Below are positions 5,209 to 53,882 of a stretch of 64,000 bases of DNA, one piece after another (positions within the stretch are counted from its first letter, which is position 1; every line of letters starts with the position of its first letter). The notes under the pieces were generated by a model, which was given only the letters and a program-made list of their open reading frames with translations, did not search any database and was not told where the DNA came from. Source of the DNA: Trypanosoma brucei (Eukaryota). The position numbers were made by a program, and so were the translations under genes. The stretch lies in assembly GCA_000002445.1 (NCBI GenBank), contig CM000207.1:2272001-2336000 (forward strand). Reading direction: 5' to 3'.

Positions 5209-5353
5209 AACTAACGCTATTATTAGAACAGTTTCTGTACTATATTGGTATGAGAAGCTCCCAGTAGCAGCTGGGCCAACACACGCATTTGTGCTGTTGG
5301 TTCCCGCCGCATACTGCGGGAATCTGGAAGGTGGGGTCGGATGACCTCCACTC
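5209..5353 (+). ncRNA. SLRNA: SL RNA gene, copy 4
   Basis: Identical SL exon and intron. The upstream flank has CTTACTTTTG where copies 1 and 2 have CTTATTTTTG. Confidence 0.92.
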
Positions 5354-5443
5354 TTTTTATTTTTTTTATTTTTTTTATTTTATTTTTTTTGATTTTTTTT
5401 ATTTGCTATGCTGACACACACACTCACACACACTCACTCACTC

Positions 5444-5474
<31 letters not shown>

Positions 5475-5526
5475 ATATATATATTTCTTTATTTATTTAT
5501 TTGTTTATTTATTTATTTGTTTGTTT

Positions 5527-5557
<31 letters not shown>

Positions 5558-6592
5558 TATGCAAATATAATTATACTATAGCTTATGGTTTTCTTGCATA
5601 TCTGTATAAGCGCGTTGGGGTTCTTGATGGGCGCTTTCATGGCTTATACGTGCTCGTTTCTCCCGTTCATTTTTACGCAGTCGGACAATTTCATGTCGCT
5701 CTTTCCATTGCAATTACTCATTTTCATTTTACACATCACTTTCTTACACATATAGGCGCTTTAAAGTCTGCTGCCCGCCGTTTTCAATGGCGGTCGGCAT
5801 GCCCCTCTACATGCCTACTGAGCAGGCGGACGGGCCCCGGCATGGCAACACCAAATATCCCCTTTCAGGGTTTCGCCTCATTTTGCCGATGTTCTTAACC
5901 TGGTTATACCCGCAATATGCCAGCTGCACGTTCAGTTCGTGATGTTATATACTTTTCCAATTTTGGGGCCGGCCCCCGCCCAATCATCACCCGCCGCTAA
6001 TAAACGGCGGCAGCAATAACAGCGAGCATACCGCCGGCCAGCCACAGAGCCGAAAGAAGCCGGCCTGCGCGCCCCTATTCATGTTATTAGCCGCCATTAA
6101 GCATTATATTACACTCAGCTCAACCGTCCTTCTCCTTTGCGTTGTTGTTGTCGCCGTTGTGTTCTATATAAAGTTTATCGGCAGAGGCGCCCCTGGCTCC
6201 TCCCCATCACCCCCTGCCCACCCTCCAAAATCTGGCCGCCGCCGGCTGGTCCTGGCGCGCCCCAGAAACGCGTTTCTTTTATTGTTGGTTGATTGCCTTA
6301 ATGTTCTGTTGAAGATGGCGATTCACCATTAAGCATTTAATATTTTAGAAATAAGAGAGCGCTGGTAAAAGACGGCGGGTCGCCGCCCACATGGTGGTTG
6401 CCGTTATGCACTATACCCCATGTAGTATATATGCGGCCCCGCTTATTCCGCCCCCCTCCCCCATAACGCCTTAAGCACAAGACCCCTTTGTTTCCCATAA
6501 GTCTACCGACACGTTTCTGGCACGACAGTAAAATATGGCAAGTGTCTCAAAACTGCCTGTACAGCTTACTTTTGGGACACACCCATGCTTTC

Positions 6593-6651
6593 AACTAACG
6601 CTATTATTAGAACAGTTTCTGTACTATATTGGTATGAGAAGCTCCCAGTAG
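6593..6651 (+). pseudogene. Truncated terminal SL RNA gene. It keeps the 39-nt exon plus 20 nt of intron, then diverges (GAATTATCCG where intact copies have CAGCTGGGCC). This is the 3' boundary of the SL array.
   Basis: The upstream promoter-like flank is intact and identical to copy 4. Homology to the intact copies stops after ...GCTCCCAGTAG at 6651. Confidence 0.85.
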
Positions 6652-7049
6652 GAATTATCCGTACTTGGGGTCAATTTTTCGGGAAGAGAAAGAAGTAAGA
6701 AATCGCTGCATTTATGATATCGATAGGAAAGGAAGGAAAACCTCAAAACCAAAAAAGTCTTGTTTTGGGGGTTCGAACCCGGACCTCCAAAACACAAACA
6801 CAATTAGGAGAGGAGTGTTGCCAGTTGGGCTCTTTCGACAAATCGGAGGAAAAATTGAAAATTTATGCTCAGATGAAATATACCAAATCGTACATATCGA
6901 AGAGAAAAAACATAGGTGTACAAACGGTGCACACGTAGAAAAAAGTAGCGGAATTGATAGAACTCAGGTAAATAAACCCATTACAGAAATCAGCGGATCA
7001 GTTTCTTTCTTGGGACAGAATATCGGGAGGTTGGATGTCAAAAAGTCAC

Positions 7050-8920
7050 CCGAAAATGAATATTTAGAAAAAATCAACTGTGGTCAAAACGACATAATGA
7101 CCACAAAAAATTGTCGCTACGCAGACTTTCGTAGCGCATTTGAAAGGGCTCGACCAGCCCAATGCATGAGTAACAACGGTTACTGCGACAAAGAGGTCAC
7201 AAAAAAATTAGGTGCTGCCGAACCTAAAATTTTTTCAAAAAATGGAAATTTTGAAAAAATTAACCGTGGTCAAAACGACATGACGACCACAAAAAATTGT
7301 CGCTACGCAGACTTTCGTAGCGCATTTGAAAGGGCTCGACCAGCCCAATGCATGAGTAACAACGGTTACTGCGACAAAGAGGTCACAAAAAAATTAGGTG
7401 CTGCCGAACCTAAAATTTTTTCAAAAAATGGAAATTTTGAAAAAATTAACCGTGGTCAAAACGACATGACGACCACAAAAAATTGTCGCTACGCAGACTT
7501 TCGTAGCGCATTTGAAAGGGCTCGACCAGCCCAATGCATGAGTAACAACGGTTACTGCGACAAAGAGGTCACAAAAAAATTAGGTGCTGTCGAACCTAAT
7601 ATTTTTTCAAAAAATGGAAATTTTGAAAAAATTAACCGTGGTCAAATCGACATGACGACCACAAAAAATTGTCGCTACGCAGACTTTCGTAGCGCATTTG
7701 AAAGGGCTCGACCAGCCCAATGCATGAGTAACAACGGTTACTGCGACAAAGAGGTCACAAAAAAATTAGGTGCTGCCGAACCTAAAATTTTTTCAAAAAA
7801 TGGAAATTTTGAAAAAATTAACCGTGGTCAAATCGACATGACGACCACAAAAAATTGTCGCTACGCAGACTTCCGTAGCGCATTTGAAAGGGCTCGACCA
7901 GCCCAATGCATGAGTAACAACGGTTACTGCGACAAAGAGGTCACAAAAAAATTAGGTGCTGTCGAACCTAATATTTTTTCAAAAAATGGAAATTTTGAAA
8001 AAATTAACCGTGGTCAAAACGACATGACGACCACAAAAAATTGTCGCTACGCAGACTTTCGTAGCGCATTTGAAAGGGCTCGACCAGCCCAATGCATGAG
8101 TAACAACGGTTACTGCGACAAAGAGGTCACAAAAAAATTAGGTGCTGTCGAACCTAATATTTTTTCAAAAAATGGAAATTTTGAAAAAATTAACCGTGGT
8201 CAAATCGACATGACGACCACAAAAAATTGTCGCTACGCAGACTTTCGTAGCGCATTTGAAAGGGCTCGACCAGCCCAATGCATGAGTAACAACGGTTACT
8301 GCGACAAAGAGGTCACAAAAAAATTAGGTGCTGTCGAACCTAATATTTTTTCAAAAAATGGAAATTTTGAAAAAATTAACCGTGGTCAAATCGACATGAC
8401 GACCACAAAAAATTGTCGCTACGAAGACTTCCGTAGCGCATTTGAAAGGGCTCGACCAGCCCAATGCATGAGTAACAACGGTTACTGCGACAAAGAGGTC
8501 ACAAAAAAATTAGGTGCTGTCGAACCTAATATTTTTTCAAAAAATGGAAATTTTGAAAAAATTAACCGTGGTCAAATCGACATGACGACCACAAAAAATT
8601 GTCGCTACGCAGACTTCCGTAGCGCATTTGAAAGGGCTCGACCAGCCCAATGCATGAGTAACAACGGTTACTGCGACAAAGAGGTCACAAAAAAATTAGG
8701 TGCTGTCGAACCTAATATTTTTTCAAAAAATGGAAATTTTGAAAAAATTAACCGTGGTCAAATCGACATGACGACCACAAAAAATTGTCGCTACGCAGAC
8801 TTCCGTAGCGCATTTGAAAGGGCTCGACCAGCCCAATGCATGAGTAACAACGGTTACTGCGACAAAGAGGTCACAAAAAAATTAGGTGCTGTCGAACCTA
8901 ATATTTTTTCAAAAAATGGA
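7050..8920 (+). repeat. 186-bp tandem satellite, about 10 copies, + orientation. The unit is ...AAAATTGTCGCTACGCAGACTTTCGTAGCGCATTTGAAAGGGCTCGACCAGCCCAATGCATGAGTAACAACGGTTACTGCGACAAAGAGGTCACAAAAAAATTAGGTGCTG(C/T)CGAACCTAA(A/T)ATTTTTTCAAAAAATGGAAATTTTGAAAAAATTAACCGTGGTCAAA(A/T)CGACATGACGACCAC
   Basis: The exact period is 186 bp; for example, GGTCAAAACGACAT occurs at 7082 and again at 7268. Each unit contains a perfect 7-bp stem hairpin, CGCTACG-N8-CGTAGCG. The six-frame ORF 6665..8971 is a periodic 62-aa repeat. Confidence 0.9.
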
Positions 8921-9149
8921 AACCATTTTTTTGCGACCAATTTTTATTTGAGCATTGCAATGGTCTATTGAAATTCGTGAAAATGCACTACTCGGATCTT
9001 CGTAGTGATCACTTTTTCGACCAGCTGCAATGTTGGAAATTTGCCTTTTTTCATCAATTTTTGATGTTTTCGGCTTTTTCCCCCTCTCTATATTTCTTGT
9101 TGCTTCGTTATGACAATAACCGTTGTTATTGCCTAATTCTACTCGTCCA
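8921..9149. repeat. Degenerate junction between the two oppositely oriented satellite blocks. It holds decayed + copies and then decayed - copies, and the orientation switches near 9050-9150.
   Basis: There is diverged + orientation unit-like sequence (TTCGTAGTGATCACTTTTTCGACCAGCTGCAATG) at about 8990-9040. There is diverged - orientation unit-like sequence (GCGCTACGGAAGTCTGCGTAGAAACCATG) at about 9160-9190. Confidence 0.7.
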
Positions 9150-11762
9150 TTCCGTGTAAATGCGCTACGGAAGTCTGCGTAGAAACCATGTTTATCGTTT
9201 TTGTCGGCCTGCGAAATTTGCTCTTTTTCTTTATTTTTTGAGCATTTTTCTTTTCCAACCGCCCCTATTTTTCTTATGACCTCTTTGTCGCAGTAACCGT
9301 TGTTACTCATGCATTGGGCTGGTCGAGCCCTTTCAAATGCGCTACGAAAGTCTGCGTAGCGACAATTTTTTGTGGTCGTCATGTCGATTTGACCACGGTT
9401 AATTTTTTCAAAATTTCCATTTTTTGAAAAAATATTAGGTTCGACAGCACCTAATTTTTTTGTGACCTCTTTGTCGCAGTAACCGTTGTTACTCATGCAT
9501 TGGGCTGGTCGAGCCCTTTCAAATGCGCTACGGAAGTCTGCGTAGCGACAATTTTTTGTGGTCGTCATGTCGATTTGACCACGGTTAATTTTTTCAAAAT
9601 TTCCATTTTTTGAAAAAATATTAGGTTCGACAGCACCTAATTTTTTTGTGACCTCTTTGTCGCAGTAACCGTTGTTACTCATGCATTGGGCTGGTCGAGC
9701 CCTTTCAAATGCGCTACGGAAGTCTTCGTAGCGACAATTTTTTGTGGTCGTCATGTCGTTTTGACCACGGTTAATTTTTTCAAAATTTCCATTTTTTGAA
9801 AAAATATTAGGTTCGACTGCACCTAATTTTTTTGTGACCTCTTTGTCGCAATAACCGTTGTTACTCATGCATTGGGCTGGTCGAGCCCTTTCAAATGCGC
9901 TACGGAAGTCTTCGTAGCGACAATTTTTTGTGGTCGTCATGTCGTTTTGACCACGGTTAATTTTTTCAAAATTTCCATTTTTTGAAAAAATATTAGGTTC
10001 GACAGCACCTAATTTTTTTGTGACCTCTTTGTCGCAATAACCGTTGTTACTCATGCATTGGGCTGGTCGAGCCCTTTCAAATGCGCTACGGAAGTCTGCG
10101 TAGCGACAATTTTTTGTGGTCGTCATGTCGTTTTGACCACGGTTAATTTTTTCAAAATTTCCATTTTTTGAAAAACTTTTAGGTTCGGCAGCACCTAATT
10201 TTTTTTGTGACCTCTTTGTCGCAATAACCGTTGTTACTCATGCATTGGGCTGGTCGAGCCCTTTCAAATGCGCTACGGAAGTCTGCGTAGCGACAATTTT
10301 TTGTGGTCGTCATGTCGATTTGACCACGGTTAATTTTTTCAAAATTTCCATTTTTTGAAAAAATATTAGGTTCGACAGCACCTAATTTTTTTGTGACCTC
10401 TTTGTCGCAGTAACCGTTGTTACTCATGCATTGGGCTGGTCGAGCCCTTTCAAATGCGCTACGGAAGTCTTCGTAGCGACAATTTTTTGTGGTCGTCATG
10501 TCGTTTTGACCACGGTTAATTTTTTCAAAATTTCCATTTTTTGAAAAAATATTAGGTTCGACTGCACCTAATTTTTTTGTGACCTCTTTGTCGCAATAAC
10601 CGTTGTTACTCATGCATTGGGCTGGTCGAGCCCTTTCAAATGCGCTACGGAAGTCTTCGTAGCGACAATTTTTTGTGGTCGTCATGTCGTTTTGACCACG
10701 GTTAATTTTTTCAAAATTTCCATTTTTTGAAAAAATATTAGGTTCGACAGCACCTAATTTTTTTGTGACCTCTTTGTCGCAGTAACCGTTGTTACTCATG
10801 CATTGGGCTGGTCGAGCCCTTTCAAATGCGCTACGGAAGTCTTCGTAGCGACAATTTTTTGTGGTCGTCATGTCGTTTTGACCACGGTTAATTTTTTCAA
10901 AATTTCCATTTTTTGAAAAAATATTAGGTTCGACTGCACCTAATTTTTTGGCGACCTCTTTGTCGCAATAACCGTTGTTACTCATGCATTGGGCTGGTCG
11001 AGCCCTTTCAAATGCGCTACGGAAGTCTGCGTAGCGACAATTTTTTGTGGTCGTCATGTCGATTTGACCACGGTTAATTTTTTCAAAATTTCCATTTTTT
11101 GAAAAAATATTAGGTTCGACAGCACCTAATTTTTTTGTGACCTCTTTGTCGCAGTAACCGTTGTTACTCATGCATTGGGCTGGTCGAGCCCTTTCAAATG
11201 CGCTACGAAAGTCTGCGTAGCGACAATTTTTTGTGGTCGTCATGTCGATTTGACCACGGTTAATTTTTTCAAAATTTCCATTTTTTGAAAAAATATTAGG
11301 TTCGACAGCACCTAATTTTTTTGTGACCTCTTTGTCGCAGTAACCGTTGTTACTCATGCATTGGGCTGGTCGAGCCCTTTCAAATGCGCTACGGAAGTCT
11401 GCGTAGCGACAATTTTTTGTGGTCGTCATGTCGATTTGACCACGGTTAATTTTTTCAAAATTTCCATTTTTTGAAAAAATATTAGGTTCGACAGCACCTA
11501 ATTTTTTTGTGACCTCTTTGTCGCAGTAACCGTTGTTACTCATGCATTGGGCTGGTCGAGCCCTTTCAAATGCGCTACGGAAGTCTTCGTAGCGACAATT
11601 TTTTGTGGTCGTCATGTCGTTTTGACCACGGTTAATTTTTTCAAAATTTCCATTTTTTGAAAAAATATTAGGTTCGACTGCACCTAATTTTTTGGCGACC
11701 TCTTTGTCGCAATAACCGTTGTTACTCATGCATTGGGCTGGTCGAGCCCTTTCAAATGCACT
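9150..11762 (-). repeat. The same 186-bp satellite, about 14 copies, inverted (- orientation). Together with the + block it forms a head-to-head, palindrome-like arrangement.
   Basis: The reverse complement of the unit is repeated with period 186. The minus-strand ORFs 8909..10126 and 10179..11729 translate to the same 62-aa periodic peptide as the + strand ORF. Confidence 0.9.
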
Positions 11763-12796
11763 ACTTGAATGTTTGTGACGAGTTTTTGCTTTCTACTTCA
11801 TTGATAAGGGGAAATTCTTCATTTTACCTTTTCTTGACATTTTTTTTTTTGCCTCTCAGCCCTTTTACCTCTTTACCCTTATTTTCTTGTAAATAACTGT
11901 TGGTACTATCGGAAATATTTGGCCGATTTTTTGCAAGAGCTATCACTAAATGTTTATGAAGGTATATGGGTACAAAGGCAAAAATACCAGAGTGTGGAAA
12001 ATATCATCATAGCAATACTAGGGGCAAGTATTCAAAATTCGATCACATCGGAAGCTTCAACCATTTCGGATGATCAGAGCACGTATTTCAACTTATTCAA
12101 CGAGATCTTTCCACTGTATATAACACCGATTCTTCAAAGAAAGTGTTTTTAAAGGCCACAGCGGGGGAAGGGCAAAAACAGGAAAATTATATGAAAAAAT
12201 GAAGGATCAAAAATGAGTTCAACGATATTCAAAAACCTAACCATTTCGACTGGTCAGATAGTGCTTTTCAAAGATCTCAATTGAATTATTTTTAAACACA
12301 ATATCTGACCGGTCGTAATGGTTAGGTTTTTGAATATCGTCGAACTCATTTTAATTTATACTTTGTGCCTTCCCCCCATTTTGTGGGTGACTTTCTTTTT
12401 CAGGTCCCCTCATCTTTTCTTCCACATGTTGAAAAGGATAACCATAGCGCAATATAGATATACATATCCAAGGCCAGTGAAATCCCCTTTCTTTGAATAC
12501 ACCATCATTTATTTCTTTAAAGGCTAACGTTTAATTTATTTTCTTCTGGCGCTGAATATAATTTTTTTCTTCTCCATTTTTTAGTCTCTTTTTTCTGAGG
12601 TGGCCAGCCTTACCTTTTTTAGCTTCGACCAGTGGAGAATGGTTCGAACCGCCAGATGTGTTTCTCCTAATTCAAAATTATCTCGTTTCCGTAAAGTCGT
12701 TACACGCAATATCAATCGTCAAGGCAGATTAAAAAAACTGTTCTAATAGTATCTTATCACTTATTTTCATTGGTTTTTCTGTTTCCATATATTATT

Positions 12797-14176
12797 TTAG
12801 AGCCTTCTGGCTTTCTCCATTGCCTCTGCCGCACTGTAAACGTGAACATTCCCGCGGAGGACGGCTGCCACCACATCCGCAGTTATCCCGTCGAATGCGG
12901 TGGTTACCGTAAGTCGGTGGTCCTGGCCCCGGAGGACGCGGCGAAGCCAGTCACGACTTTTGCCGAAAATAGCACCGTTTGTAAGCATAACAAATGGTGC
13001 GAAGGCCAGTCCATTTTGTATCGCCCAGTAGCTGTACTTGCGCTCCTTTTCCTGGAAGCGCACCAATGCGGCTTTCATTGGATCTGCCGCAGCTACTGAG
13101 CGCTGACCTTGGGCGGTGTTTCCGACGGTCACGCGCCCTGGATACGTCACCGTGATGTCCGTCACCGCGTACGTATCCAACCCCGCAATGAGGATGTCCG
13201 GCCTCCTCTTGCTCACCTCATTTAGGCGTGGTTCCGTCGCGCACTGGAACCCACAGAGGCGAAGGCCGTTTGCGAACACGCTGTTAATGATGTCGTGTCG
13301 CATCTGCCTGGGTTTATTGTGCACTTTGGTGCACGTGTGGATGTGGTGATTGCTCGCGTCTTCACCACATAGGCATTTGACCCCCTCCGGTAGTACCCTC
13401 ACAAGTAAACGTTCCCGCAGGTACACTCCGAAAGTGGCGTCGTCCAGCCTCACCTGAGCATCCGTGAGGGGCCTGCCAGCTCCGGCGGCGGTATTGGCTG
13501 TAAAGACTTGACGATCAGCACCCCCAAGGGTGGCGTAGAGGTCGTCTTGCTGTCTTTGGTCAGCCTCCTCCGTCTTCCTCTGCTGGAGACCTTTCTCTCC
13601 GGCGCACTGGTGGGCGTACTCTGCCACTTGGGCCATCCGCCTAATTCCACAGCCACCCATGCTCACGGGCAGCGCCGCTATATTCCGGGCCCTTTCGGTC
13701 ATGGGTTGCCCGAGAATATGCTCCATTACCTGGGTGGTCCTCTCATCGAACCAGGAAGCCACCCGGTGTGTGTGTTGCATATCGTGGTTCCGCAACAGGA
13801 ATGTGATCCTTGGCATTGCCGACATCGCCAGAATCCTCCATCGTGTCCTGTTGTAGAGGGGTAGCTCCACGATTGCCTTGAAGAGGCGGTCTGTTTCCAT
13901 CACCTTCTTCACCCCCTCCCGAATCTCCTCGCTCATTGGATCCGGGGCCACGTACGCTCCAAGAACTCGCGCACACGCCTTCACCGCTGTCCCAAAGCCT
14001 GTGTCCCCAGTCAGTTCGAGGACCTCGGTTTTGTCCGCATTGTTGACGATTCCGAGTTTCTCTATCTGTTGGGCTATCGTCTTGTAAGCATGTTGTAGCT
14101 TATCTGGTGTTGCTGGTACCATGATATCGAGTAGATACGCCGTAAAGTGCTTGTTGGATTCTTTGCTGCGAGTCAT
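12797..14176 (-). pseudogene. Reverse-transcriptase C-terminal fragment (motif C onward plus Cys/His domain) of the degenerate retroelement.
   Basis: It is a 459-aa ORF. The catalytic YADD is mutated to YLLD, and the ORF starts just upstream of motif C with no RT N-terminal half in frame. Confidence 0.5.
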
Positions 14177-16316
14177 GAAGCGTTTTTAGAGTGATCGAAA
14201 AAACCAAGGACTCTGGTGCCATCCCCTGTCTTACTCTCTTCCCGTATATTGCCATTTTTGGCGGAGTCGCCCGTTTTCGTAAAAGCTCACTGCTCCTGCT
14301 GATCCATGGAAGGGGTGGACGAGGCGCTCTGGCGGGGACCACGCAGCGTCTTCATACACTGCTGTCAGTAATGTGCGTCTGTGGATGGCATTGTACGCGG
14401 TCCGACCATCCAGCATGGCCACACTGTCCTGTAGCCACGTTATCTAATCTTTCGCAGCCGTTCGCCCTGAGTTGCATTGATCGGTCCAACACGCCTTTTC
14501 ATATGGGGGCGGTGTTCGACTATATTGATGGTGAAATAGTGGCGAGTGGCGCCGGCTTTGCGTATACTCTATCCACCTCTGTTGTTCTGTCTTTTTTTGC
14601 TTGTTTTTTTGCTCTCTGCTATCATTAGGAGATGTAGAGAATCTTGTCAAGAAGTAGTTCTGCTTGGAGCGATGTTGCTATGCATTCTTCGTGGTTAGAG
14701 GGAATTCCCAATGGGCGAAGCAAATTAAAAGTGTCACAGATTTGCGTAACATGTCTACGTCGTGGGCACAGACGCATGAACTGTGTGGGCTTCTGAAACC
14801 GCAATCTGGTATATTCCCGAAAAAAGCGCATGGTCGGTGGCGCCAAACCCACCGCCAAATGAGTGAATTCTGTGAACGGATGTCTTGTGAGCTGAGTTCG
14901 CAAGTGGATGACAGTAACAACGATAAAAAACATTGCACTGTAATGCGTGAAACAGTGAGGGTCAACGTCGTTTTTTTCCTGTTTTAACAAACCTCCAACC
15001 TTTATGCCCTCAGTATTGAAAGAAATAACGTTGCATTTACCGTGAAGGGGTGCATTCACACCGTTTGGAAGTTCAGATCACCGGAGTGGCAGTGAACAGT
15101 ACGCCAAAAGCCTCCCCTCCCGTAGCGGTGCCGTGGCTGGTTGGAGAGGCATTGGTGAAGCGATCCTGAGCGTCCCTAAAAAGGAAGTGAAGGACAGGTG
15201 CTGAGCCGGTTTTGGACGCTCCATGTAATTTTCTGAGGAACTGTTGTTGTGCTTTACAACCGCTGCTACCACATGCAAATTGCTTTGCATAAGGGGAAGT
15301 TACACAATTTTGACTCGTTTGCGGATCGATCAAAAGTGGTGCAGCCCTCGGCACCCCGCTCTCTGTATCACAGCAACACGAATAACGGCAACACCCAGCA
15401 TAAAAGGGAATCCCAGTGACCAAGTCCAATCCCTCTCCTTACACAGCTTCAGCACTTGTTGCCGCGGTGGGCTCAAATGTATTGCCCTCTCGTAGCCAAG
15501 AGCGGGGCGTCCGAAGAAGTAAGTTGATGAAGAAGGTTCTCCGAAAGGCACCGCTGAAGTGAGTCAAAAACGAGAGGGCGAGGAAATGCCAGTAAGGGGT
15601 AGAAAGGGATCTATAGGGTAAATTGGAGCTGAAGCTCAGTGTACCGGATGGTCTCATGAAGCAGGCAAAGTGTGGAAATCTACCAGAGCTCGGGTGTATG
15701 GTCTTAACGCATGTGACGCGAATGCATTCCGAGGCCACCGTGCGGGCTCTAGGATCTGTTTTGTGGCTGCGCAGCAAAACTGAAGGTGAAAATAGGAAAC
15801 CACCGGCGTCCTCGCTGCGGCAGGACACCGGCAAGGTGAGTTTAGCTGCCGTTTTACCATGGGGGATGTGTACCGTTACGCAGAAAACAGCACTTGCACA
15901 GAGTTAGAGCGTGTAGGTCGGCAACCATTGAGCCATACAATCGAGTGCAGCGCTAGGGGAACGAGGAGGAAGCATTGGGTAGCAAATTTGAGTGAGCGCG
16001 CGCTGAATATCTGGGTGGGATTAGTGAAGTTCCTTACAGCATTGTCGCACCCCGATGATTCGGTTTCCCTGTAATTCATAGTCACAGCCTTTTTTGTGGG
16101 CGTATCATCCAGTGTGTCTTTGTGGAGGAAGTACGAGACGGATACGAGTGCTGTTGCGGTCATTGTTATTTTCTGCTGTGTTGCTGTTATTGTTGTTTCC
16201 TCGGTTAGATTAAGTGGTTTATCTCGTTGTTCTCGTCTCCTGCTAGAAGTGCGTTCCTGCAGTGTTTTTTTTTCATTGTTTGCTGTGTTCCTTTCGGTAT
16301 AGTACCGTGTGCGCAT
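12797..16316 (-). mobile_element. Degenerate non-LTR (ingi/DIRE-like) retrotransposon remnant. The 3' portion is still a 459-aa ORF. The 5' portion has decayed into a tiled series of short minus-strand ORFs broken by stops and frameshifts.
   Basis: The N-terminus of the 459-aa ORF reads FTAYLLDIMV...(28 aa)...LGIVNNADKTEVLEL. This matches the reverse-transcriptase motif C (F-x-A-Y-A-D-D-I, here decayed to YLLD) followed by the conserved G-h-x-h-N-x-x-K-T-x-h-h block of non-LTR RTs. A C-terminal Cys/His cluster (CLCGEDASNHHIHTC) is present. Contiguous minus-strand ORFs (14100-14342, 14231-14422, 14444-14650, 14625-15059, 15073-15429, 15439-15834, 15876-16316) tile the upstream region. Confidence 0.55.
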
Positions 16317-17393
16317 GCCAAGGTCTTCATGTCAATCTTTTCTCCATTTGCTGTATCGTTTTTTTACCGTTATGCAAAGGGTGTTTCCCTTATGTTCTTT
16401 TGTACAGCGGGTGCCTTCTCTACCCACGTCACTCCTCCTCACTAACACTGACTCGTAGAAAGTCTGCACAGTTTATATGTGCTACGAGTAATAGGATTCA
16501 TTCCCAACATTGCTTCTGACTTGTACTCATTTTTCATCACTATCATGTTTTACGTCTGCGTATAACCAGAGATAGGTGTCGCACGCAGGTACCATTAGGA
16601 AAAGAGACTTATGTGGGCTTCTGGCTCTCGTTTGGCGCCAGCCTTATCGAAGGCTACTAGGCTTCAGTTAGGTAATATTAAAACGGAATATGGCTACGTA
16701 TCAACGGCAGCAGGTTCCCAAGAAAAATGGGGCTTCTTATTCAAGGGAAGAAGGTACCCGTTGATTAGCTGCGGATATTCCATATGCCTTGTTTGCATCG
16801 CCATAACGGTGGTGGGCACGTATCAGCAATACCGCGATATGATTATCATGACGGAGCACATATCTTACGAAGATGTAAAGGACCGATGTCTGACACCGAT
16901 GCCTGGGTGGGCGCGCCTTCGAAGCCTGCAGATCGCTAGTCCACTTGGTCCGATGACATATCGAGACCCAACACCGCTGGATTGGCTGCCATTTGAGCTG
17001 AAACTTGGTTGTGTTAAGCAAGCATCGTACTAGGGAACGCATTATGCTACATTTGGTGTTTTAGGTGATCAAAATTTTGATGGGTGCTTTGGCGGAAAAA
17101 AGGAAAGGATATCGCGGAGAATAGAAGAACCGATAGCATGAGGTTGATACTTGATAGGGGTTAAGGTGGCGTATGACTTTATCGTAGTGAAACGGCGTCA
17201 GGGGTATTGGGTACATTATTTCTTGTTTTTTTTCGACGGATTTTTGCGATTGTATCTGCTCCGTTTCTGACACTGTTTCCGGCGTTGTCCCTCCCACACC
17301 CAAAGAGTTCTTCTTTCGTTGCTACTGTTAGTTTTCATCGCAGCTCATTGTTCCTGGTATTTTGAAATAGCTGTAGTTTTTTTAAAAAAAGGG

Positions 17394-18149
17394 ATGAAGG
17401 GCGTTGGCAGTAATAATTGTTTCATACAATTCCGTGCTGGGAAAATGCTTCTTACGGATGGCAAAGTTGTTGCGGATACGCGGAGGGGCACGTTATCTTT
17501 TTCAAAGGAATCAAATGGTGTTGTAAAGATGACTTGGGTATCGGGTTCTCATGCGGAACATTACGATCTTCCCTTGGGCCAAGTGAAGTTCAGCAGAGTC
17601 GATACGTGCACTACTGGTAGAGTGCTACTGTTCGACTTTGGCAAGGCCCAACCGCCGCTTTTTTTCTGGATGCAGGAAAAGTCAACAGACAATGACAACA
17701 CCTATTTTTCTGCAGTGGAGAATTCACTTGTCCAGAATCCCTCAGCTATTGGGAGTTTGCATACACACACCTCACCACTCACTGATCAAGCCCGTGCGAG
17801 ACTTGAGGGCTATTTCGCGTCGGCTCTGAACAACGTTCGTGGAGGTAGGGAACAAGACGTTGACTTGGTAAGCATTGTGGGTTCGGCGAAAGTGGTGGAC
17901 GCCTTACGAGCAGATCCCGATTACTTCATGTGTAGGTTGCATCCATTCTTACCCGAGGGAACCGATTCGACATCAGGTATTGTGGAGCACGTTATAAACC
18001 CTCAAGTATCCGCTGCTGCTGCTTCGTTGGGGTTGGTTCTGCAGACTCCCGACGGATTCCGCGAATTATGCGCGGCCTTTCACGTTGATGGGAAAAAGAC
18101 AGGGGTCGTGGGTTTCATAAGCGGATTACTGAAGCAAGTGAAGAAATGA
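17394..18149 (+). CDS. RPN13: Proteasomal ubiquitin receptor Rpn13/ADRM1 homolog (Pru domain). The six-frame ORF starts at 17319, but the likely start is the ATG at 17394 (MKGVGSNN...).
   Basis: CFIQFRAGKMLLTDGKVVADTRRGTLSF...GRVLLFDFGKAQPPLFFWMQE matches the Rpn13 Pru-domain signature (EFRAGKM...KRKG...RVYVLKF...RLFFWMQE). Confidence 0.85.
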   Translation: MKGVGSNNCFIQFRAGKMLLTDGKVVADTRRGTLSFSKESNGVVKMTWVSGSHAEHYDLPLGQVKFSRVDTCTTGRVLLFDFGKAQPPLFFWMQEKSTDNDNTYFSAVENSLVQNPSAIGSLHTHTSPLTDQARARLEGYFASALNNVRGGREQDVDLVSIVGSAKVVDALRADPDYFMCRLHPFLPEGTDSTSGIVEHVINPQVSAAAASLGLVLQTPDGFRELCAAFHVDGKKTGVVGFISGLLKQVKK

Positions 18150-19539: not shown

Positions 19540-19550
19540 GGGGGGGGGGG
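19540..19550 (+). repeat. G11 homopolymer tract.
   Basis: Read directly from the sequence. Confidence 0.9.
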
Positions 19551-20100
19551 TCGTGCCCGTGTTGGATTCGCTTGACGTAGCCTTGGCAAGTCGATTATGG
19601 GGCGTCCGTGCTGTTGGAATATGAACAGTTGAAGTGTCACGACATGTTCTCTCCTCCATATATATAATTAAGCTCTTTCATCCATCCTGTATAACGCTCA
19701 GCCGGTTTGTTTTGGCTGCTTCCCGAGTCTCTTTGCTTTTCTTTTAGTGATTGCGCTTGAGCAGCCACTCTTAGCGCGTGTACGTTTGCTTCCAAGGAGA
19801 ATCCAGCAGCGTAACTATGCGGGACTAGGCAGTGTAGTGCGCTGGATGAGTGATTAGAGCCTATCCAGTTACTAATTTTGTATTTTGTGAATATACCGTT
19901 GAACTGACTGGGGCAACATGTTGCCTGCGGTTTCTGTCTTTACACTTACATATATTTTCTCCGGAGTGATAAGTGCCCCTAAATGAACCGTTTCTACCGC
20001 CCGAGCTCTTGTGACAAGAATGTCCCTTCTCCCCATGCACGCTTTGTTTTTTTTTTTGCTACGGTATGGAAAACACGTTGGTGACATCGAGGGAGGGTGA

Positions 20101-23214: not shown

Positions 23215-24072
23215 TTGGCTCGCCGTGTGATGAAGCGCGCGCGCAAAGTGTACAGTGATGACGATGAGGAGCGGTGCAAGAAAGTGGTAGACTTCATACG
23301 GTCCCTACGGTTTTCCATCCCACTCTACCGCCTGCGGGAGCAGAATGACCGCAGACTCTGCCCAAAGTGCGGCAGGCGCCGTCAGTATTACTGCTACGAT
23401 TGTCTGATAGTGGTGCATCCGGAGAGCCAACCCCCACCCTTGAAGCTTCCACTTAATGTGTATGTCATCCTCCACCCTGGCGAAACGCGGGGTAAGAGCA
23501 CAAGCCTGGCCGCATCAACTATTTCACCGGACTTGCACATCATCGATTACCCTCACGTGCCTACTGATCTTGAACCGAAAGCGACGCTGTTGCTCTATCC
23601 CAGCACCGATAGCACGGAGCTGGAAAGCTTAGAGAACTTGGATTCTTGTAAGAACGTTGTATTCATTGACGGAACGTGGCAGCAAAGCAAGGCGATGGCT
23701 CGTGACGAACGGCTCTCTAAATTTAGGCATGTACGGATAAAGGCACAGACTTCGCTCTTCTGGCGCTTCCAGAATAATGATCCCACTTATTTGGCAACAG
23801 TGGAGGCCATTTACTACTTTCTGCGCGAGTTCATATCACAGAACAATAAACGGCGTGCTGGATGCCAGCCACCGTATTATAATGGAGATGTCGATGACAT
23901 ACTTTATTACTACATCAACCAATATATCGCTGTGCAGCAGCGCTACTGCAAGAGCGAATTGGAATACACAACAAGACACTTCGACAGCTATATTATTCGC
24001 TGCTTTTCATGGGATCAGCTAGTTGCCAAACCTTCGGAAAGCGCTCCCGTGGTCAACCACAGAACTTCGTGA
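23215..24072 (+). CDS. DTW-domain protein (DTWD1/TDD-superfamily tRNA-uridine aminocarboxypropyltransferase-like).
   Basis: It has an N-terminal CPKCGRRRQYYCYDC zinc-ribbon-like motif and a VVFIDGTWQQSKAM D-T-W motif. Confidence 0.7.
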   Translation: MARRVMKRARKVYSDDDEERCKKVVDFIRSLRFSIPLYRLREQNDRRLCPKCGRRRQYYCYDCLIVVHPESQPPPLKLPLNVYVILHPGETRGKSTSLAASTISPDLHIIDYPHVPTDLEPKATLLLYPSTDSTELESLENLDSCKNVVFIDGTWQQSKAMARDERLSKFRHVRIKAQTSLFWRFQNNDPTYLATVEAIYYFLREFISQNNKRRAGCQPPYYNGDVDDILYYYINQYIAVQQRYCKSELEYTTRHFDSYIIRCFSWDQLVAKPSESAPVVNHRTS

Positions 24073-49100: not shown

Positions 49101-50251
49101 TGTACTCAAAGGTGGCATTTGACTTCCAGCAGAACCCAAGCAATGCGGAATGTCTTGTGTCGCTTCGTACGGATCCGCACTATTGCCTTCGTTTACTTTA
49201 TGACAATTTTGTGCGGCCACTGGAAGCGGACGTTGCCGGAGCAGAAGGGCTGATGTTTGTCGCTGACGGCGTCTTCAGCCGAATTCCGTTTCATGCCCTT
49301 CACGATGGGAAGAAGTACCTCGCAGAGCGCTTTTGCACGAGCACTTGCTGCTCCATGGCGCTACTCTGCACGCACGCCGTGGAGGATGAAAGCATAAAAG
49401 CCGCAGTGACTCCACCTGCAAAAGCAACAGATGGTGGCAGCGAGGAATCCATGGGGGGGATGATTCCCAAACGTTACACCATAGTTGATGATGCCTCTCA
49501 TAAGGTGGTGTTAATGGATTCCTTTGTTGAGGAGATGGTGGCTAAAAGCAATGACAGTTCTAATCCTGTTGGAGTGTGCGTCCGTCACTGGGTGGTTGAT
49601 GAAAAGCAACCTGTGATTTCTTGCGTGGCGAACGAGCAGCAACTCATCGATGCGGCGTCATCAAGTGACAACTCCAAAGATGGAAACGGCGATATCAGTG
49701 CGGAGGCGGCGGGAAATGATGATCCCGACGTGTCTGCCACAAAGCACCTGCTGTCGTGCTTGCGGCGCCGTGGCAATGTCACTTCAGTACGTAACTCCCT
49801 CTACCGAGCCGTGCATGAGAACCCCGAGGGCGTGTTGGAGTTGCGCCTTCGTGTCGTGCCGGAGGTTAAGGAGGATTATTGCGGAACTTTTGTTGGTGCC
49901 TCATGCGATGTCTCCGCCAGCCACGCCAGTGAAGTGGCCAGCTCATGGGAGTTGCGAGGTTACGCACTTGTTTTATGTAGTGGCATCGGGACCTACGGAG
50001 GATTATCCATGCATGAGACGGGAGTGCCGGTGTATCGAGCACTTCAGTATGCGGGAGCTCGCTGCATGTTGTTGGCAGCTGGCAGTCGAGTGCCGCCATA
50101 TGTTAAAGTTCCCGCTGCTGCTGCAGATGCGGCGCTGAATGGGCGGAGTGTTGCCGCAGCGCTGCGTGAGGCATATGTTCGAGCGATTGCGGCGGATGTA
50201 CCGTTGGAGGATTGGTGCGGGTTTGCGCTGGTGGGCCTGCCGATCTCGTGA
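46112..50251 (+). CDS. Large (about 1379 aa) TPR-repeat protein with a C-terminal CHAT (caspase-fold, HetF-associated with TPRs) domain.
   Basis: The central region contains TPR-like helical repeats (AYDYCIRALTQARDCHDLTTIAKALAELAE...LDEAQEHLREAL). The C-terminus reads LMFVADGVFSRIPFHALHDGKKYLAERF...SASHASEVASSWELRGYALVLCSGIGTYGGLSMHETGVPVYRALQYAGARCMLLAAGSRVPP...ALREAYV. This matches the CHAT pattern (L.h.PdG.L..lPFeAL....yL...........HfatHg......L........LVvLSAC.T........G..gL.rAfl.AGa..v.asLW.v.D). Confidence 0.55.
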   Translation: MMNPSAQPWYPPAELVLGAPTAGLTAVRWQNDPYRSRIARCPPPPLCGDDDFISLRIESLVPVAGTKTDSPIPAALTAAAAAAVLPTAVQVPVTKGQPYRSSGVTFASVPTQAEARLQKRSQPVSRCQADLKPLWRSFATVSSLDSQGDSQEIEGATTEEKCCAARVRPARPKVPIPRPRSQLNADNAFAAARNLNKTVLAGSLDINPHTPASTPNDSSPDQTSETPAVSASGTDTTTTDGENNTCTTSSPTDVGASTGRNNTCSEDAEEPSCEVISVKSTAQEADVDEKPQCLANRAPPGPTASKKTRLKPKSEKWTIVGGKAGVALASVQAAVVPAKRPTASIASTKARESVSRHRTPDPKAKERVRSKQRQSQAQHREEVNKCSSKDDVIIEQKSKRQRDSRRPRECWTDEELLETLMSSTTISAQTGASSSGNSGDGAASFAIMGVPLVCVTRGEELLTSQSSSRSDARQRNALRLFIRSLAMFETSNAKTLLLQRALNGLPESCHHQCPSLVCAIMLEMSASCVDVEKSLQTCYKALRLSERHNLDTFEMLSRLGITRTLARVVDTMDARENLTRAALIAIDRLEKEALGWIVMQMGVTLEISGLFPDSLAWYEVAERLARSTGQQRLLCEVHCCQSIAYSAVGELERAQQAYEASRLLLSNIHRHCHQRPLQNYAQLKCQLGDMAGALQLQEEELAIAKELGDTHAASRCVGAIALTKRFLGRYDEAAENYMEEFSVHCSRDPRQAVESLTGAASCWRFGGHAQKAYDYCIRALTQARDCHDLTTIAKALAELAETELSMDRLDEAQEHLREALTAVFRVDDAEQKQYLVKAALCEVEWRCCSALGQVYARRGQAFEAMQCADRCHVPNTVHMGRLLLRRQRCAGAIHDATNPELVSRQSVERVLKHPTLKGWNVVCYSLPWAEKLDFMVYVVMLDADSGELKCVAHPLVMSDELVAFFSGPNALWDLLDAPMFTDTGDRMYGDTPLWPQLYSKVAFDFQQNPSNAECLVSLRTDPHYCLRLLYDNFVRPLEADVAGAEGLMFVADGVFSRIPFHALHDGKKYLAERFCTSTCCSMALLCTHAVEDESIKAAVTPPAKATDGGSEESMGGMIPKRYTIVDDASHKVVLMDSFVEEMVAKSNDSSNPVGVCVRHWVVDEKQPVISCVANEQQLIDAASSSDNSKDGNGDISAEAAGNDDPDVSATKHLLSCLRRRGNVTSVRNSLYRAVHENPEGVLELRLRVVPEVKEDYCGTFVGASCDVSASHASEVASSWELRGYALVLCSGIGTYGGLSMHETGVPVYRALQYAGARCMLLAAGSRVPPYVKVPAAAADAALNGRSVAAALREAYVRAIAADVPLEDWCGFALVGLPIS

Positions 50252-50299
50252 TATTGCGGGAAATGTGTGATCGATCATATAAGGCGCCGAGTATTCACA

Positions 50300-53200
50300 A
50301 AATTATGCCGATTGTCTTCCATGTGGTGAACCAATCCCTGAAAGGAAGATGTAGAAGGAAAGAAAAAGAAAAAATAAAATAAAAGGAATGCGCACGGTGT
50401 ATATATGAGTATGTGTATGAATATGCTTTTATTCTTATTTATTTATCATCATCTTTTTTTTTACTGTTATTATTTTATATTTCTCTGCTACGTTCTTTTT
50501 TTTTTGTTATTGTTATCATTCCTACCATTATTATTATTATTATTACCATTATCACTATTACGATTAATACGTTTTTTTTTGTTTTCTTTAGGAAATTTGT
50601 TACGTCAGTCCATTTGTTTACTTAATTTTTTCCTTATTTTTTTTCTTTCCTTCATTCTGAAAGAGAAAAAAAAGGAGAGAAACGATGATTTTTCTTTTTC
50701 GATATGCTTGTTTTTTATTTTATTTTATTTTTCCTCCGAGATTTGTGGACATCAGCGTTATTAACTCACCATGTAGTTAAGGAAAGTAAAGTTAGGTATT
50801 TAAGGGAAATGAATGAGTGATGCATGAAGAAGTTATTTTTAAAATAAAAAGATATATATATATATATATATATAAACAAAATTTAAAAAAAAAAGATGAC
50901 GGAAAAGGCATATGCGTATGTGAAAGTGTATCGGTATTGGTATTGGTGGTTTGGGAAAAAATAATGAGTGGTGAAAACAACGGCAACATTTGAAAATAAA
51001 ATGAACAAAAACTGAGGTATATATATATATATTTATTTATTTAGCCGTCTGTATGTGTGTGTGTGTGTCTGCGTGTGTTTTTATTTATTTATTTATTACC
51101 TTAAATTTTATTCATTTTTTTCTCTTTCTTTATTTCTTTCTCACCGTCTCCACCATTTTCCTCAGCATATGTTTTTCTGATGTTATTTTTGTGTATTTTT
51201 GATTGCTTTGTTTTACCATCTCTTTTTTCTTTTCTTTTCCTTTTTTCCTTTTTTTGGTTTTTTTGTTTTTTATGTTTCGTTTTTTTTTTAATATTATTTT
51301 ATATTATAAGTTTTGTTAATCAACTTTTATCGAACAGTGTCGATGAGTCGGTAAGAGTTGATTGAGGTGTGCAGGTAGTCCCTCCCCCCTCCAAAAAAAA
51401 AAATTTTTAATTCGAAACACACGCCACCGCACGGAACGGAAAAGTGAATAATAAAAAAAAAAGGAAAAAAGGAAAAGAAAAGAAAAGGAAAACATATTAA
51501 TCAATGAAACAAAAAAAAGGGGGAAATAATAATAGTAACGATGATAGTAAAATAATAAGAATAACACATATATGTTTGTAGTTGTATGAATGGATGTGTA
51601 ATGAGCGGTTACAATACGGACATCAATGAAACAAACAAACAAACAAGAAGGAAAGAGGGAGAAATTAATGTACACATGTGTGTGAGCATATGTTAATGGA
51701 AAGAACAGGAAGGCACAACTGTGAAACTCAAAGTATGAAAAGCAAAAAAAAAAAAAGAAAAAATTGCGGCTACCGAATGATTCATATAATTTCTTTTCTT
51801 TCTCTTCTTTTTATTGTTGATGACGTAAAAAGCGTACATATGTTTTCCTGTTTCTACCACTGAAAAATGCAACACACGAACACACACGCACATGTATAAA
51901 AACATATTGGATTTATTGCTTATTCACTTTATTTATTTAGTAATTTATATGGAAGGAAACATAACTTCGGGAGTTTGATAGTGAAGAGGAGAAGGAAGGA
52001 GAAACAATTCGTGATGATTTATTTATTATTTTTTTTACAAAATAAAAGCGGTTATTAATTCTTTTTTCCCCTTTTCCTTTCTTTCTTTCTTTATTTTTTT
52101 TTCCTTTCCTTTCGTCGTTGTTGCTGTTTCCTTTTTTCATTTTTCCCAAAACTTCCTCCCCGACTATTCTTACGCGAATACAAAAATGCAAACATCTTTA
52201 TTTTATTTTTAATGTTTTTTTTTCCTTTTCTTTACGTCGTCATTATTATCATTATTATTATTACACATGCACACACATGTTCATTTCCGTTGTTTTTGCC
52301 GTTTGTTTGTTTATTTATTTGTCGTTTTATTTTTATTTTTGCTCTCGCGTTTGTGATTTTGTTTTGTTTGTTTGCCTTTATTTTGATATTATTACTTTAT
52401 ATATATTTATATATTTATATATATATATATATTATCATATATGAAAATATATGTGTTTTACTTCCGTCGCTGCTGCAGAGGTCCATTTTGTTTCTCTCAC
52501 AACTGTATATTTAAATTAAATAAATATATATATATATATAAATATATGTAAATATATAAATAAATATAAATATATATATATATATTTCCAATGAAATGTA
52601 AGAAGGGAAAGGGAGGAGGAGGAGGAGGGGGGAAGGGGGAAAGGGGAGAAAAAATAGAGAGAAATTATAAAAAAGAGTTTAAAAAACCAAATAAATCAAA
52701 TCAAATCAAATTAAATCAAATCAATAAATAATTAAACGTGTGGGCACAAGTATGTATGAAATAAAATACAATGAACCGATTTGGTATGATTTTATTTGAA
52801 CTGAAGGTGCAACACAGAGGAAGAATTATAAAGTTTTCGGAGGGGAAAAAAAAAATAGAAATAAAAGGAAAGAAAGAAATGCACACATATACATGCATGC
52901 GCATATGCCCTCGAACGAAACAGGGAAAAAAAAATCGAAAGTGTAAATGAAAATTAAAATGACAGTTGTGACGAACTGATCATATGAATGAAAGCACGCG
53001 TATTTTTTTTCCCCCCTTTTCTTTTCTGATGTGCGTGTTTTTGTGTGCATAATTTTTTTGTTTGTTTATTTTTGTTTTATTTGTTGCCTTATGTTACGCA
53101 GGAAAGAATGAAAGGAAAATAATATAGTTATAAAATAAATAATGAAATGAAATGAAATGAAGTGAAGTGACACAATATGATACTATGAAATTATGTGGGA

Positions 53201-53880
53201 GAAAAATAAAAAAAAGTATATATGAAAGATGAGGGAATCGATATTTTGAATCGTGTGCACAAAAAAAAACGCAAGACAAACAGGTAATAGTAACAGTAAT
53301 AATAACTTAAGTACCTGCATGCATACATATATTTATATATAATTTGTATGAATATATATATATAATATGTATTTGTGTATGCGTGTGTTCTAACGGTGTA
53401 AGCTGTGCGGTCAAAAAGATATGACAAAGAAAACAAAAGAAGATTTTTTTTTAAAAAAAAAGAAAGCAATGCAATATAAAAGCAGAAAGAGCCACTGATA
53501 CTCTTCTGTACATGTGGGCGGCTGAAGGTACACTCCGTTCCTATTTTCCTCTTCTTAAAATGTTGTATTTTTATTATATTTGTGTTAACATTTGCTTGTG
53601 TCCACGCTGGTGTTGCTGTTGATTCTTTCCCTTTCCCTTTTTCTTATTTCTTTTTTTTTCTTTCTAATTTTGAACCTTGTGTCCGTCACTTCTTTACATC
53701 AACCCTTCGAAATATGAGAACAACGTAAGCGAAGGCAAGTGAAGAAAGGAGTAAGTGGAAGTGGAAGTGGAAGTGGGCAAAAGGGAGGAAATAAGCGCAG
53801 GCACAAAAGCACCAAAAGAAGAAAACAAATAAACAAAAAAAAAGAAAGGTGTTAAAACACTTGTCACTCACCTTCCACAA
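50300..53880. repeat. An AT-rich, low-complexity intergenic region of about 3.6 kb, packed with heterogeneous microsatellites: poly-T/poly-A, (TA)n, (TTTA)n, (GT)n, (ATTATT)n, AAATCAAATCAAATCA, (GAAGTG)n, (GGAGGA)n.
   Basis: This can be read directly from the sequence. No ORF longer than 120 aa is present. Both flanking genes are on the + strand. Confidence 0.8.
53620..53700 (+). promoter_or_regulatory. Polypyrimidine tract upstream of the Utp6-like gene. It is the presumptive trans-splicing and polyadenylation-coupling signal.
   Basis: CTTTCCCTTTCCCTTTTTCTTATTTCTTTTTTTTTCTTTCT lies about 200 nt upstream of the ATG at 53883. Kinetoplastid SL addition uses such tracts. Confidence 0.45.
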
Positions 53881-53882
53881 CA

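Follow-up and report, generated by a model that had tools for sequence, protein, structure and literature searches.

The apparent edge of the spliced leader RNA gene array on Trypanosoma brucei chromosome 9 is most probably the upstream junction of a SLACS retrotransposon

The analysed window, a stretch of 64,000 nt of chromosome 9 of Trypanosoma brucei TREU927 (contig CM000207.1, positions 2,272,001 to 2,336,000 of the forward strand), opens inside a tandem array of spliced leader (SL) RNA genes which repeat every 1362-1396 bp. Perfect matches to the 39-nt SL exon of T. brucei occur at five positions, 1069, 2431, 3827, 5209 and 6593, all on the plus strand, while 100 shuffled controls gave no match, and a search of the 57 kb past the fifth copy did not reveal a sixth exon. 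The window does not contain any N, and at gathering thresholds no Rfam family was matched throughout its length, the SL RNA genes included. The loci compared with it derive from T. b. gambiense DAL972 (FN554972.1, locus L002) and T. b. equiperdum IVM-t1 (QSBY01000017.1, locus L003), were obtained through members of the protein cluster of ORF2 of the non-LTR retrotransposon SLACS (spliced-leader-associated conserved sequence), and are colinear with the window from position 24000 down to ~11700 at an identity of 98.5-99%. Around the fifth SL gene copy, the following features can be delineated on the plus strand.

5268-6592, plus strand: spacer and upstream promoter region of the fifth SL RNA gene (98.6-99.9% identity to the three preceding units)
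6593-6631, plus strand: 39-nt SL exon of copy 5 (exact SL match; five in the window with 0 expected)
6604-6651, plus strand: upstream copy of the SLACS target-site duplication, SL nt 12-59 (from the 3' end of the IVM-t1 element and four 5' junctions)
6632-6651, plus strand: first 20 nt of the SL intron (SL gene nt 40-59) including the GT donor (five-copy alignment and motif scan)
6652-7052, plus strand: SLACS 5' leader of 401 bp, starting with GAATTATCCGTACTTGGGG… (contiguous matches of 96-98% after SL nt 59 in two DAL972 copies and in IVM-t1)
7053-8922, plus strand: SLACS 5' UTR tandem repeats in sense orientation, 10 units of 186 bp (TRF: period 186, 10.1 copies, 98% matches)

With the other units, the last full one (5268-6651) shares 98.6-99.9% identity, and in the five-copy alignment copy 5 equals copy 4 without a difference over 169 nt upstream of +1, the exon and the first 20 nt of the intron. 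The preliminary description, which had the promoter block, the complete 39-nt exon and the GT donor preserved in copy 5 and the homology ending at 6651, is thus accurate on these points, its coordinates included. The homology of copy 5 to the other genes stops after GTATGAGAAGCTCCCAGTAG, with position 6651 corresponding to SL gene nt 59; position 6652 is a G, where intact SL genes have a C, and beyond it the homology is lost.

The stretch 6652-7052, single-copy within the window, starts directly after SL nt 59 with GAATTATCCG…, also given as GAATTATCC…, and is followed by the array of 186-bp repeats; when compared with the 5' UTRs of the elements in DAL972 and IVM-t1, both parts show 96-98% identity. 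In those elements fewer units separate the leader from ORF1, namely 5 and 7 in DAL972 and ~7 before the full SLACS body of IVM-t1; the original description of SLACS reportedly had 3 units of 185 bp. The first unit of the plus-strand array is a distinctive variant in common with the first unit of one of the DAL972 elements. What the window holds on the plus strand is hence a 5' stump (6652-8922) composed of the leader and 10 repeat units; a search of the window found neither ORF1, ORF2 nor 3' UTR of this copy and nothing of it after the repeats, which counts against the explanation preferred here, and likewise neither a SLACS 3' end nor a junction of poly(A) with SL nt 12. Judged by its sequence, the plus-strand copy is a 5' fragment of a SLACS element and not an autonomous member.

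Open reading frames of 768, 405 and 516 aa (6665-8971, 8909-10126 and 10179-11729) run across the repeats. Since 186 bp amount to 62 stop-free codons, such frames stay open by construction, and a protein search with 6665-7420 found no homologue, so that they were treated as non-coding. A tRNA-like T-arm considered for GGTTCGAACC at ~6770 and 12641 was dismissed as well, as ARAGORN predicted no tRNA and the motif is just a 10-nt palindrome.

The junction …CCCAGTAG / GAATTATCCGTACTTGGGG…, with the break after GTATGAGAAGCTCCCAGTAG, recurs twice in DAL972 and once in IVM-t1, which gives four copies in three assemblies (window 6651/6652; L002 15873 and 20177; L003 19886), and in four of four 5' junctions the leader begins after SL nt 59. 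Both DAL972 junctions have a complete SL exon and promoter directly upstream and continue through the leader, the 186-bp repeats and a 340-bp segment into the SLACS body, of which ~1.5-1.7 kb are present before assembly gaps intervene. The IVM-t1 junction copy could be followed as far as the repeats, where the fetched locus ends; elsewhere in this assembly, such repeats and the 340-bp segment are followed by a full body which matches UniProt P15594 over aa 1-1182, with 90.7% over aa 202-1182. DAL972 was scaffolded on TREU927 and is gapped, and IVM-t1 is a low-coverage PacBio/Illumina hybrid assembled de novo; the contexts past the junction are less certain than the junction itself. As an identical break is present in both of these assemblies, the truncation at 6651, for which an assembly collapse had been named as the refuting outcome, is not due to collapse. 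On the other hand, the 'unrelated sequence' or 'adjacent satellite' said to follow it has to be given up: because junction and repeats in DAL972, and the repeats in IVM-t1, lead into the SLACS body, it is the SLACS 5' UTR.

The geometry of insertion can be read from the full IVM-t1 element, whose 3' end consists of ORF2, ~360 nt of 3' UTR, …GGGGCAGTT, A11 and then TTATTAGAACAG…, that is SL nt 12 onward (L003 19541-19600, with the junction of poly(A) and SL nt 12 at 19541-19552). With the poly(A) side at nt 11/12 and the 5' side after nt 59, the duplicated target is SL nt 12-59, which stands on both sides of the element as 48 bp; it becomes 49 bp on counting the A at nt 11, ambiguous because it cannot be told apart from the poly(A). 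A 49-bp SLACS target-site duplication is said to have been described by Aksoy et al. It is this duplication which makes the upstream SL exon look intact and the truncation at nt 59 the canonical upstream junction of every SLACS insertion. The insertion site has been placed between SL nt 11 and 12 (PMC5814959), a rule which, as far as these junction sequences go, is visible at the poly(A) side only. The earlier statement, by which the five SL exons are all free of SLACS insertions, therefore holds for the exon sequence itself, as the window is without a poly(A)-SL nt 12 junction, but not as an interpretation, since copy 5 is interrupted.

SLACS would integrate by target-primed reverse transcription at SL nt 11/12, and for the duplication two routes are conceivable: either a staggered second-strand cut at nt 59/60, or homology-assisted 5' joining of an element RNA that already starts with SL nt 1-59. 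Carry-over of SL nt 1-59 in the RNA template would explain the invariant junction across copies. With each insertion the upstream host gene would be expected to keep its promoter, the 39-nt exon and 20 nt of intron, followed by the leader GAATTATCC…, and the element after SL nt 59 would have the order leader, 186-bp repeats, 340-bp segment, ORF1 and ORF2. An additional arrangement is seen at L003 19829-19886, where SL spacer breaks after GCAAATATA and gives way to A11, then to SL nt 12-59 and to the leader of SLACS; such an order would be expected from insertion of a second SLACS into the target duplicate left by a previous element, or could stem from a chimeric contig.

In our estimation, there is little doubt that positions 6593-8922 represent the upstream end of a SLACS non-LTR retrotransposon within an SL RNA gene on TREU927 chromosome 9, and copy 5, as its sequence reads, is a SLACS-interrupted SL gene. 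A bare array edge, with the terminal SL repeat cut by an old rearrangement and abutting unrelated single-locus sequence and satellite, would agree with copy 5 being the last SL gene before non-SL sequence in the TREU927 assembly, but is very improbable: the same break with the same downstream sequence is found twice in DAL972, where the SLACS body follows, and once in IVM-t1, where the same repeats and 340-bp segment also precede full SLACS ORFs, the break point coincides with the exact end of the SLACS target-site duplication, and the 'satellite' is part of the element. A true edge would be a unique truncation next to non-mobile single-copy DNA; encountered were four occurrences in three assemblies, next to a mobile element. 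Even less credit can be given to an artefact at 6651/6652, be it a collapse of the array or a chimeric clone joining an SL unit to foreign sequence. Although the SL array has certainly been collapsed in the TREU927 assembly, with five copies in the window as compared to the ~42.8 kb reported for the array in another assembly (PMC9508842), the junction agrees in every base with that of the independent IVM-t1 assembly and with those of DAL972, is free of Ns and is expected from SLACS biology.

A SLACS 5' junction with its 5' UTR in the reference genome is an already known feature and not a newly resolved array edge, and has little weight as a discovery. Both SLACS and the geometry of its insertion were reportedly described in 1987-1990, and the use of the SL promoter in 2008. 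The result is of use as a correction for the reading of SL arrays: where an SL gene has an intact exon but breaks off after 20 nt of intron, this marks a SLACS insertion and not the end of an array. The sole residual novelty would be a head-to-head arrangement further downstream, which is a candidate only.

SLACS, whose ORF2 is P15594, belongs to the CRE clade, elements of which (SLACS, CZAR, CRE1/2) occupy the same position in the SL gene and have a poly(A) end and target-site duplications of varying size; they carry a reverse transcriptase and a restriction-like endonuclease and can contain internal repeat regions (PMC12278014). The window copy is like SLACS in residing in an SL gene with the identical nt-59 junction and the host promoter kept upstream, and in its 401-bp leader and 186-bp 5' UTR repeats, at 96-98% DNA identity. 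Unlike a full SLACS, it is a 2.3-kb stump that ends in an inverted join to another SLACS 5' UTR, and it has 10 repeat units versus 5-7 in the SLACS arrays of the other assemblies. For YTat 1.1, a SLACS copy number of 16-18 has been reported. CZAR of T. cruzi, CRE1/CRE2 of Crithidia and a SLACS-like element of T. congolense share the target position in the SL gene, with ORF2 fragments 51-74% identical, but are different, species-specific elements, and for their 5' UTR repeats and duplication lengths no agreement with SLACS is known. The T. congolense IL3000 element (locus L001, ~2020-2098) ends with …GGAGGTCGGGGCAGCTAATA and ~22 A, followed by SL nt ~12 onward, and the terminal motif …GGAGGTCGGGGCAG and the target site are kept between the 3' junctions of T. 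brucei and T. congolense. By analogy only, SLACS can be compared to R2 of the 28S rDNA, likewise a site-specific non-LTR element with a restriction-like endonuclease that inserts into a tandem multicopy RNA gene and uses the host promoter; R2 is co-transcribed by Pol I and released by a ribozyme, whereas SLACS has the Pol II SL promoter and retains SL nt 1-59 as its 5' end.

According to a passage in PMC3447711 that cites Patrick et al. (2008), SLACS transcripts have their start at +1 of the SL gene which the element interrupts. In copy 5 this promoter is intact by sequence, and from what is published on promoter use, the kept SL promoter would drive the element, whose transcripts would bear SL sequence at the 5' end. 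Compared with intact SL genes, copy 5 does not have the T-rich terminator block, which there starts from +146; instead it has only T5 at +83 and T6 at +638. The T5 run, at 6675-6679 in the TREU927 leader, is T4 in both DAL972 copies and in the IVM-t1 copy, and might be a weak Pol II stop particular to the window copy. Reading of the sequence from 6652 onward against the intact copies, together with general knowledge on SL RNA, indicates that copy 5 RNA is without stem-loops II/III and the Sm site, so that its transcripts should not act as splice donors. The proposed SL-capped read-through transcription into the neighbouring satellite agrees in essence with the published model of SLACS transcription from SL +1 (PMC3447711); its supposed satellite target is the 5' UTR of SLACS.

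Beyond the plus-strand stump the orientation changes, with a head-to-head join at 8922/8923 to a SLACS 5' UTR on the opposite strand, and the region up to the next coding remnant comprises the following features.

8923-9263, minus strand: 340-bp SLACS 5' UTR segment (341 nt in the window), in full elements the link from the repeats to ORF1 (aligned to IVM-t1 and two DAL972 copies)
9264-11764, minus strand: second SLACS 5' UTR repeat array, in sense orientation on this strand, 13.4 units (TRF)
11765-12734, no strand assigned: 970-bp segment of shared flank (colinear at 98.5-99% with the DAL972 and IVM-t1 loci)
12735-12748, minus strand: 14-nt exact match to SL nt 13-26 (exact pattern search; only match outside the five SL genes, 0 expected)
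12821-14425, minus strand: SLACS ORF2 fragment, aa 642-1176 of P15594, covering the end of the reverse transcriptase, the zinc knuckle and the restriction-like endonuclease (tblastn: 83% over 538 aa)

The 340-bp segment belongs to the minus-strand element, and its end at 8923 is the inverted breakpoint. In the TREU927 assembly, the 5' UTR of this element and the ORF2 fragment together border the SL locus on its chromosome-internal side. In the alignment, the window, IVM-t1 and the two DAL972 copies are identical through …GGTCGCAAAAAAATGGTT; past this point the full elements go on with AGAAACTTGAGG… toward ORF1, while the window has …GGTT / TCCATTTTTTG… and so enters a repeat unit in antisense. 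At the join, 2 nt of microhomology are located within an inverted repeat of 9 nt (AAAAAATGG…CCATTTTTT), and window positions 8911-8935 across it read AAAAAATGGAAACCATTTTTTTGCG. The arrays 7053-8922 and 9264-11764 form an inverted repeat, 98% complementary, with arms of up to 1565 nt and a spacer of 341 nt; for a 1086-nt sample, 8551-9636, a hairpin fold of -706.8 kcal/mol was predicted. As both unit variants and unit order differ between the plus and the minus array, the two are distinct sequences, and a single array assembled in both orientations, considered as an explanation, is ruled out.

The join at 8922/8923 may be a real inversion or a mis-join of the reference. Compatible with a SLACS insertion in copy 5 is the further claim that copy 5 is nonetheless the true terminal SL gene and the palindrome 7053-11764 a real rearrangement at a chromosome-internal edge of the array, to which we give somewhat less than an even chance. 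It is favoured by the seamless sequence without N and by the differences in unit variants and order, by which the arrays are not the same reads used twice, and the flank from 11765 on is common to two other subspecies. It is opposed by IVM-t1, in which the minus array is succeeded, without an inverted join, by a complete SLACS and this by SL fragments whose orientation is the reverse of that of the array in the window, and by DAL972, which has an assembly gap exactly at the site of the join; moreover, the join has just the 2 nt of microhomology, and both repeat arrays are longer than Sanger or Illumina reads, so that a wrong path is possible in any assembly. The path from copy 5 to unique chromosomal DNA crosses this very join, which IVM-t1 lacks and DAL972 leaves as a gap. 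That the boundary of the array has been resolved here, as initially proposed, is accordingly not supported: the break at nt 59 is a SLACS junction, and unique DNA is reached through the inverted join. If the head-to-head arrangement is not real, the reference is wrong as to how the SL array is oriented with respect to its flank, which would matter for Hi-C and ChIP studies that use the locus as a trans-splicing hub.

If, on the other hand, the arrangement is real, the promoter of copy 5 would drive 10 sense units, the 341-nt spacer and 13 antisense units, and the resulting hairpin, located where the SL locus ends, could constitutively feed SLACS 5' UTR double-stranded RNA to Dicer, a scenario that we regard as unlikely. 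It would amount to a promoter-fed hairpin directed against an element that parasitises the SL genes. The long near-identical inverted arms and the intact upstream promoter to be expected of such an siRNA locus are present, in the TREU927 assembly only. [quoted passage not shown] Like the T. brucei siRNA loci IR1-IR7 (Tschudi et al., 2012), the chromosome 9 inverted repeat has near-identical inverted arms of kb size with a short spacer and is capable of forming a hairpin, and SLACS is a major source of siRNAs, as IR1-IR7 are siRNA loci; it is, however, not among the seven loci listed there, has arms made up of tandemly repeated retrotransposon UTR sequence and is known from the TREU927 assembly alone.

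The flank past the minus array is common to the three assemblies. Its 970-bp segment, compared as 11765-12826 by BLAST and Smith-Waterman with the SL unit, the SLACS leader, the 340-bp segment and the repeat unit, gave nothing clearly above shuffles; against the SL unit it scored marginally above shuffled controls in either orientation. A near-perfect palindrome of ~143 bp, 85% self-complementary, is located within it at 12210-12352. The SLACS ORF2 relic that follows, ~6 kb from the break in copy 5, is the sole coding SLACS remnant in the window; its core, 12827-14057, is 99.3% identical at the DNA level to the full IVM-t1 element. The fragment includes a minus-strand ORF of 459 aa (12797-14176), besides which there is no long ORF close to the SL array; it is 100% identical to the TREU927 protein XP_827645 / EAN77315, annotated as 'SLACS reverse transcriptase, putative', and has its closest relatives in a 90% cluster including P15594, the 1182-aa SLACS ORF2 of T. 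b. gambiense. The 14-nt SL match at 12735-12748, 67 nt downstream of the end of ORF2 homology and without 3' UTR or poly(A), looks like the scar of an old SLACS 3' junction, although it is too short for proof.

Between the ORF2 relic and the first gene of a long plus-strand cluster, which is Rpn13-like (17394-18149), ~3 kb (14426-17300) are without a long ORF and presumably constitute the transcription start region of this cluster. Further along, at 50000-54000, an AT-rich island with TA-rich microsatellites and a GC content of 0.31-0.33, as against ~0.50 around it, lies between two plus-strand ORFs of the same downstream cluster.
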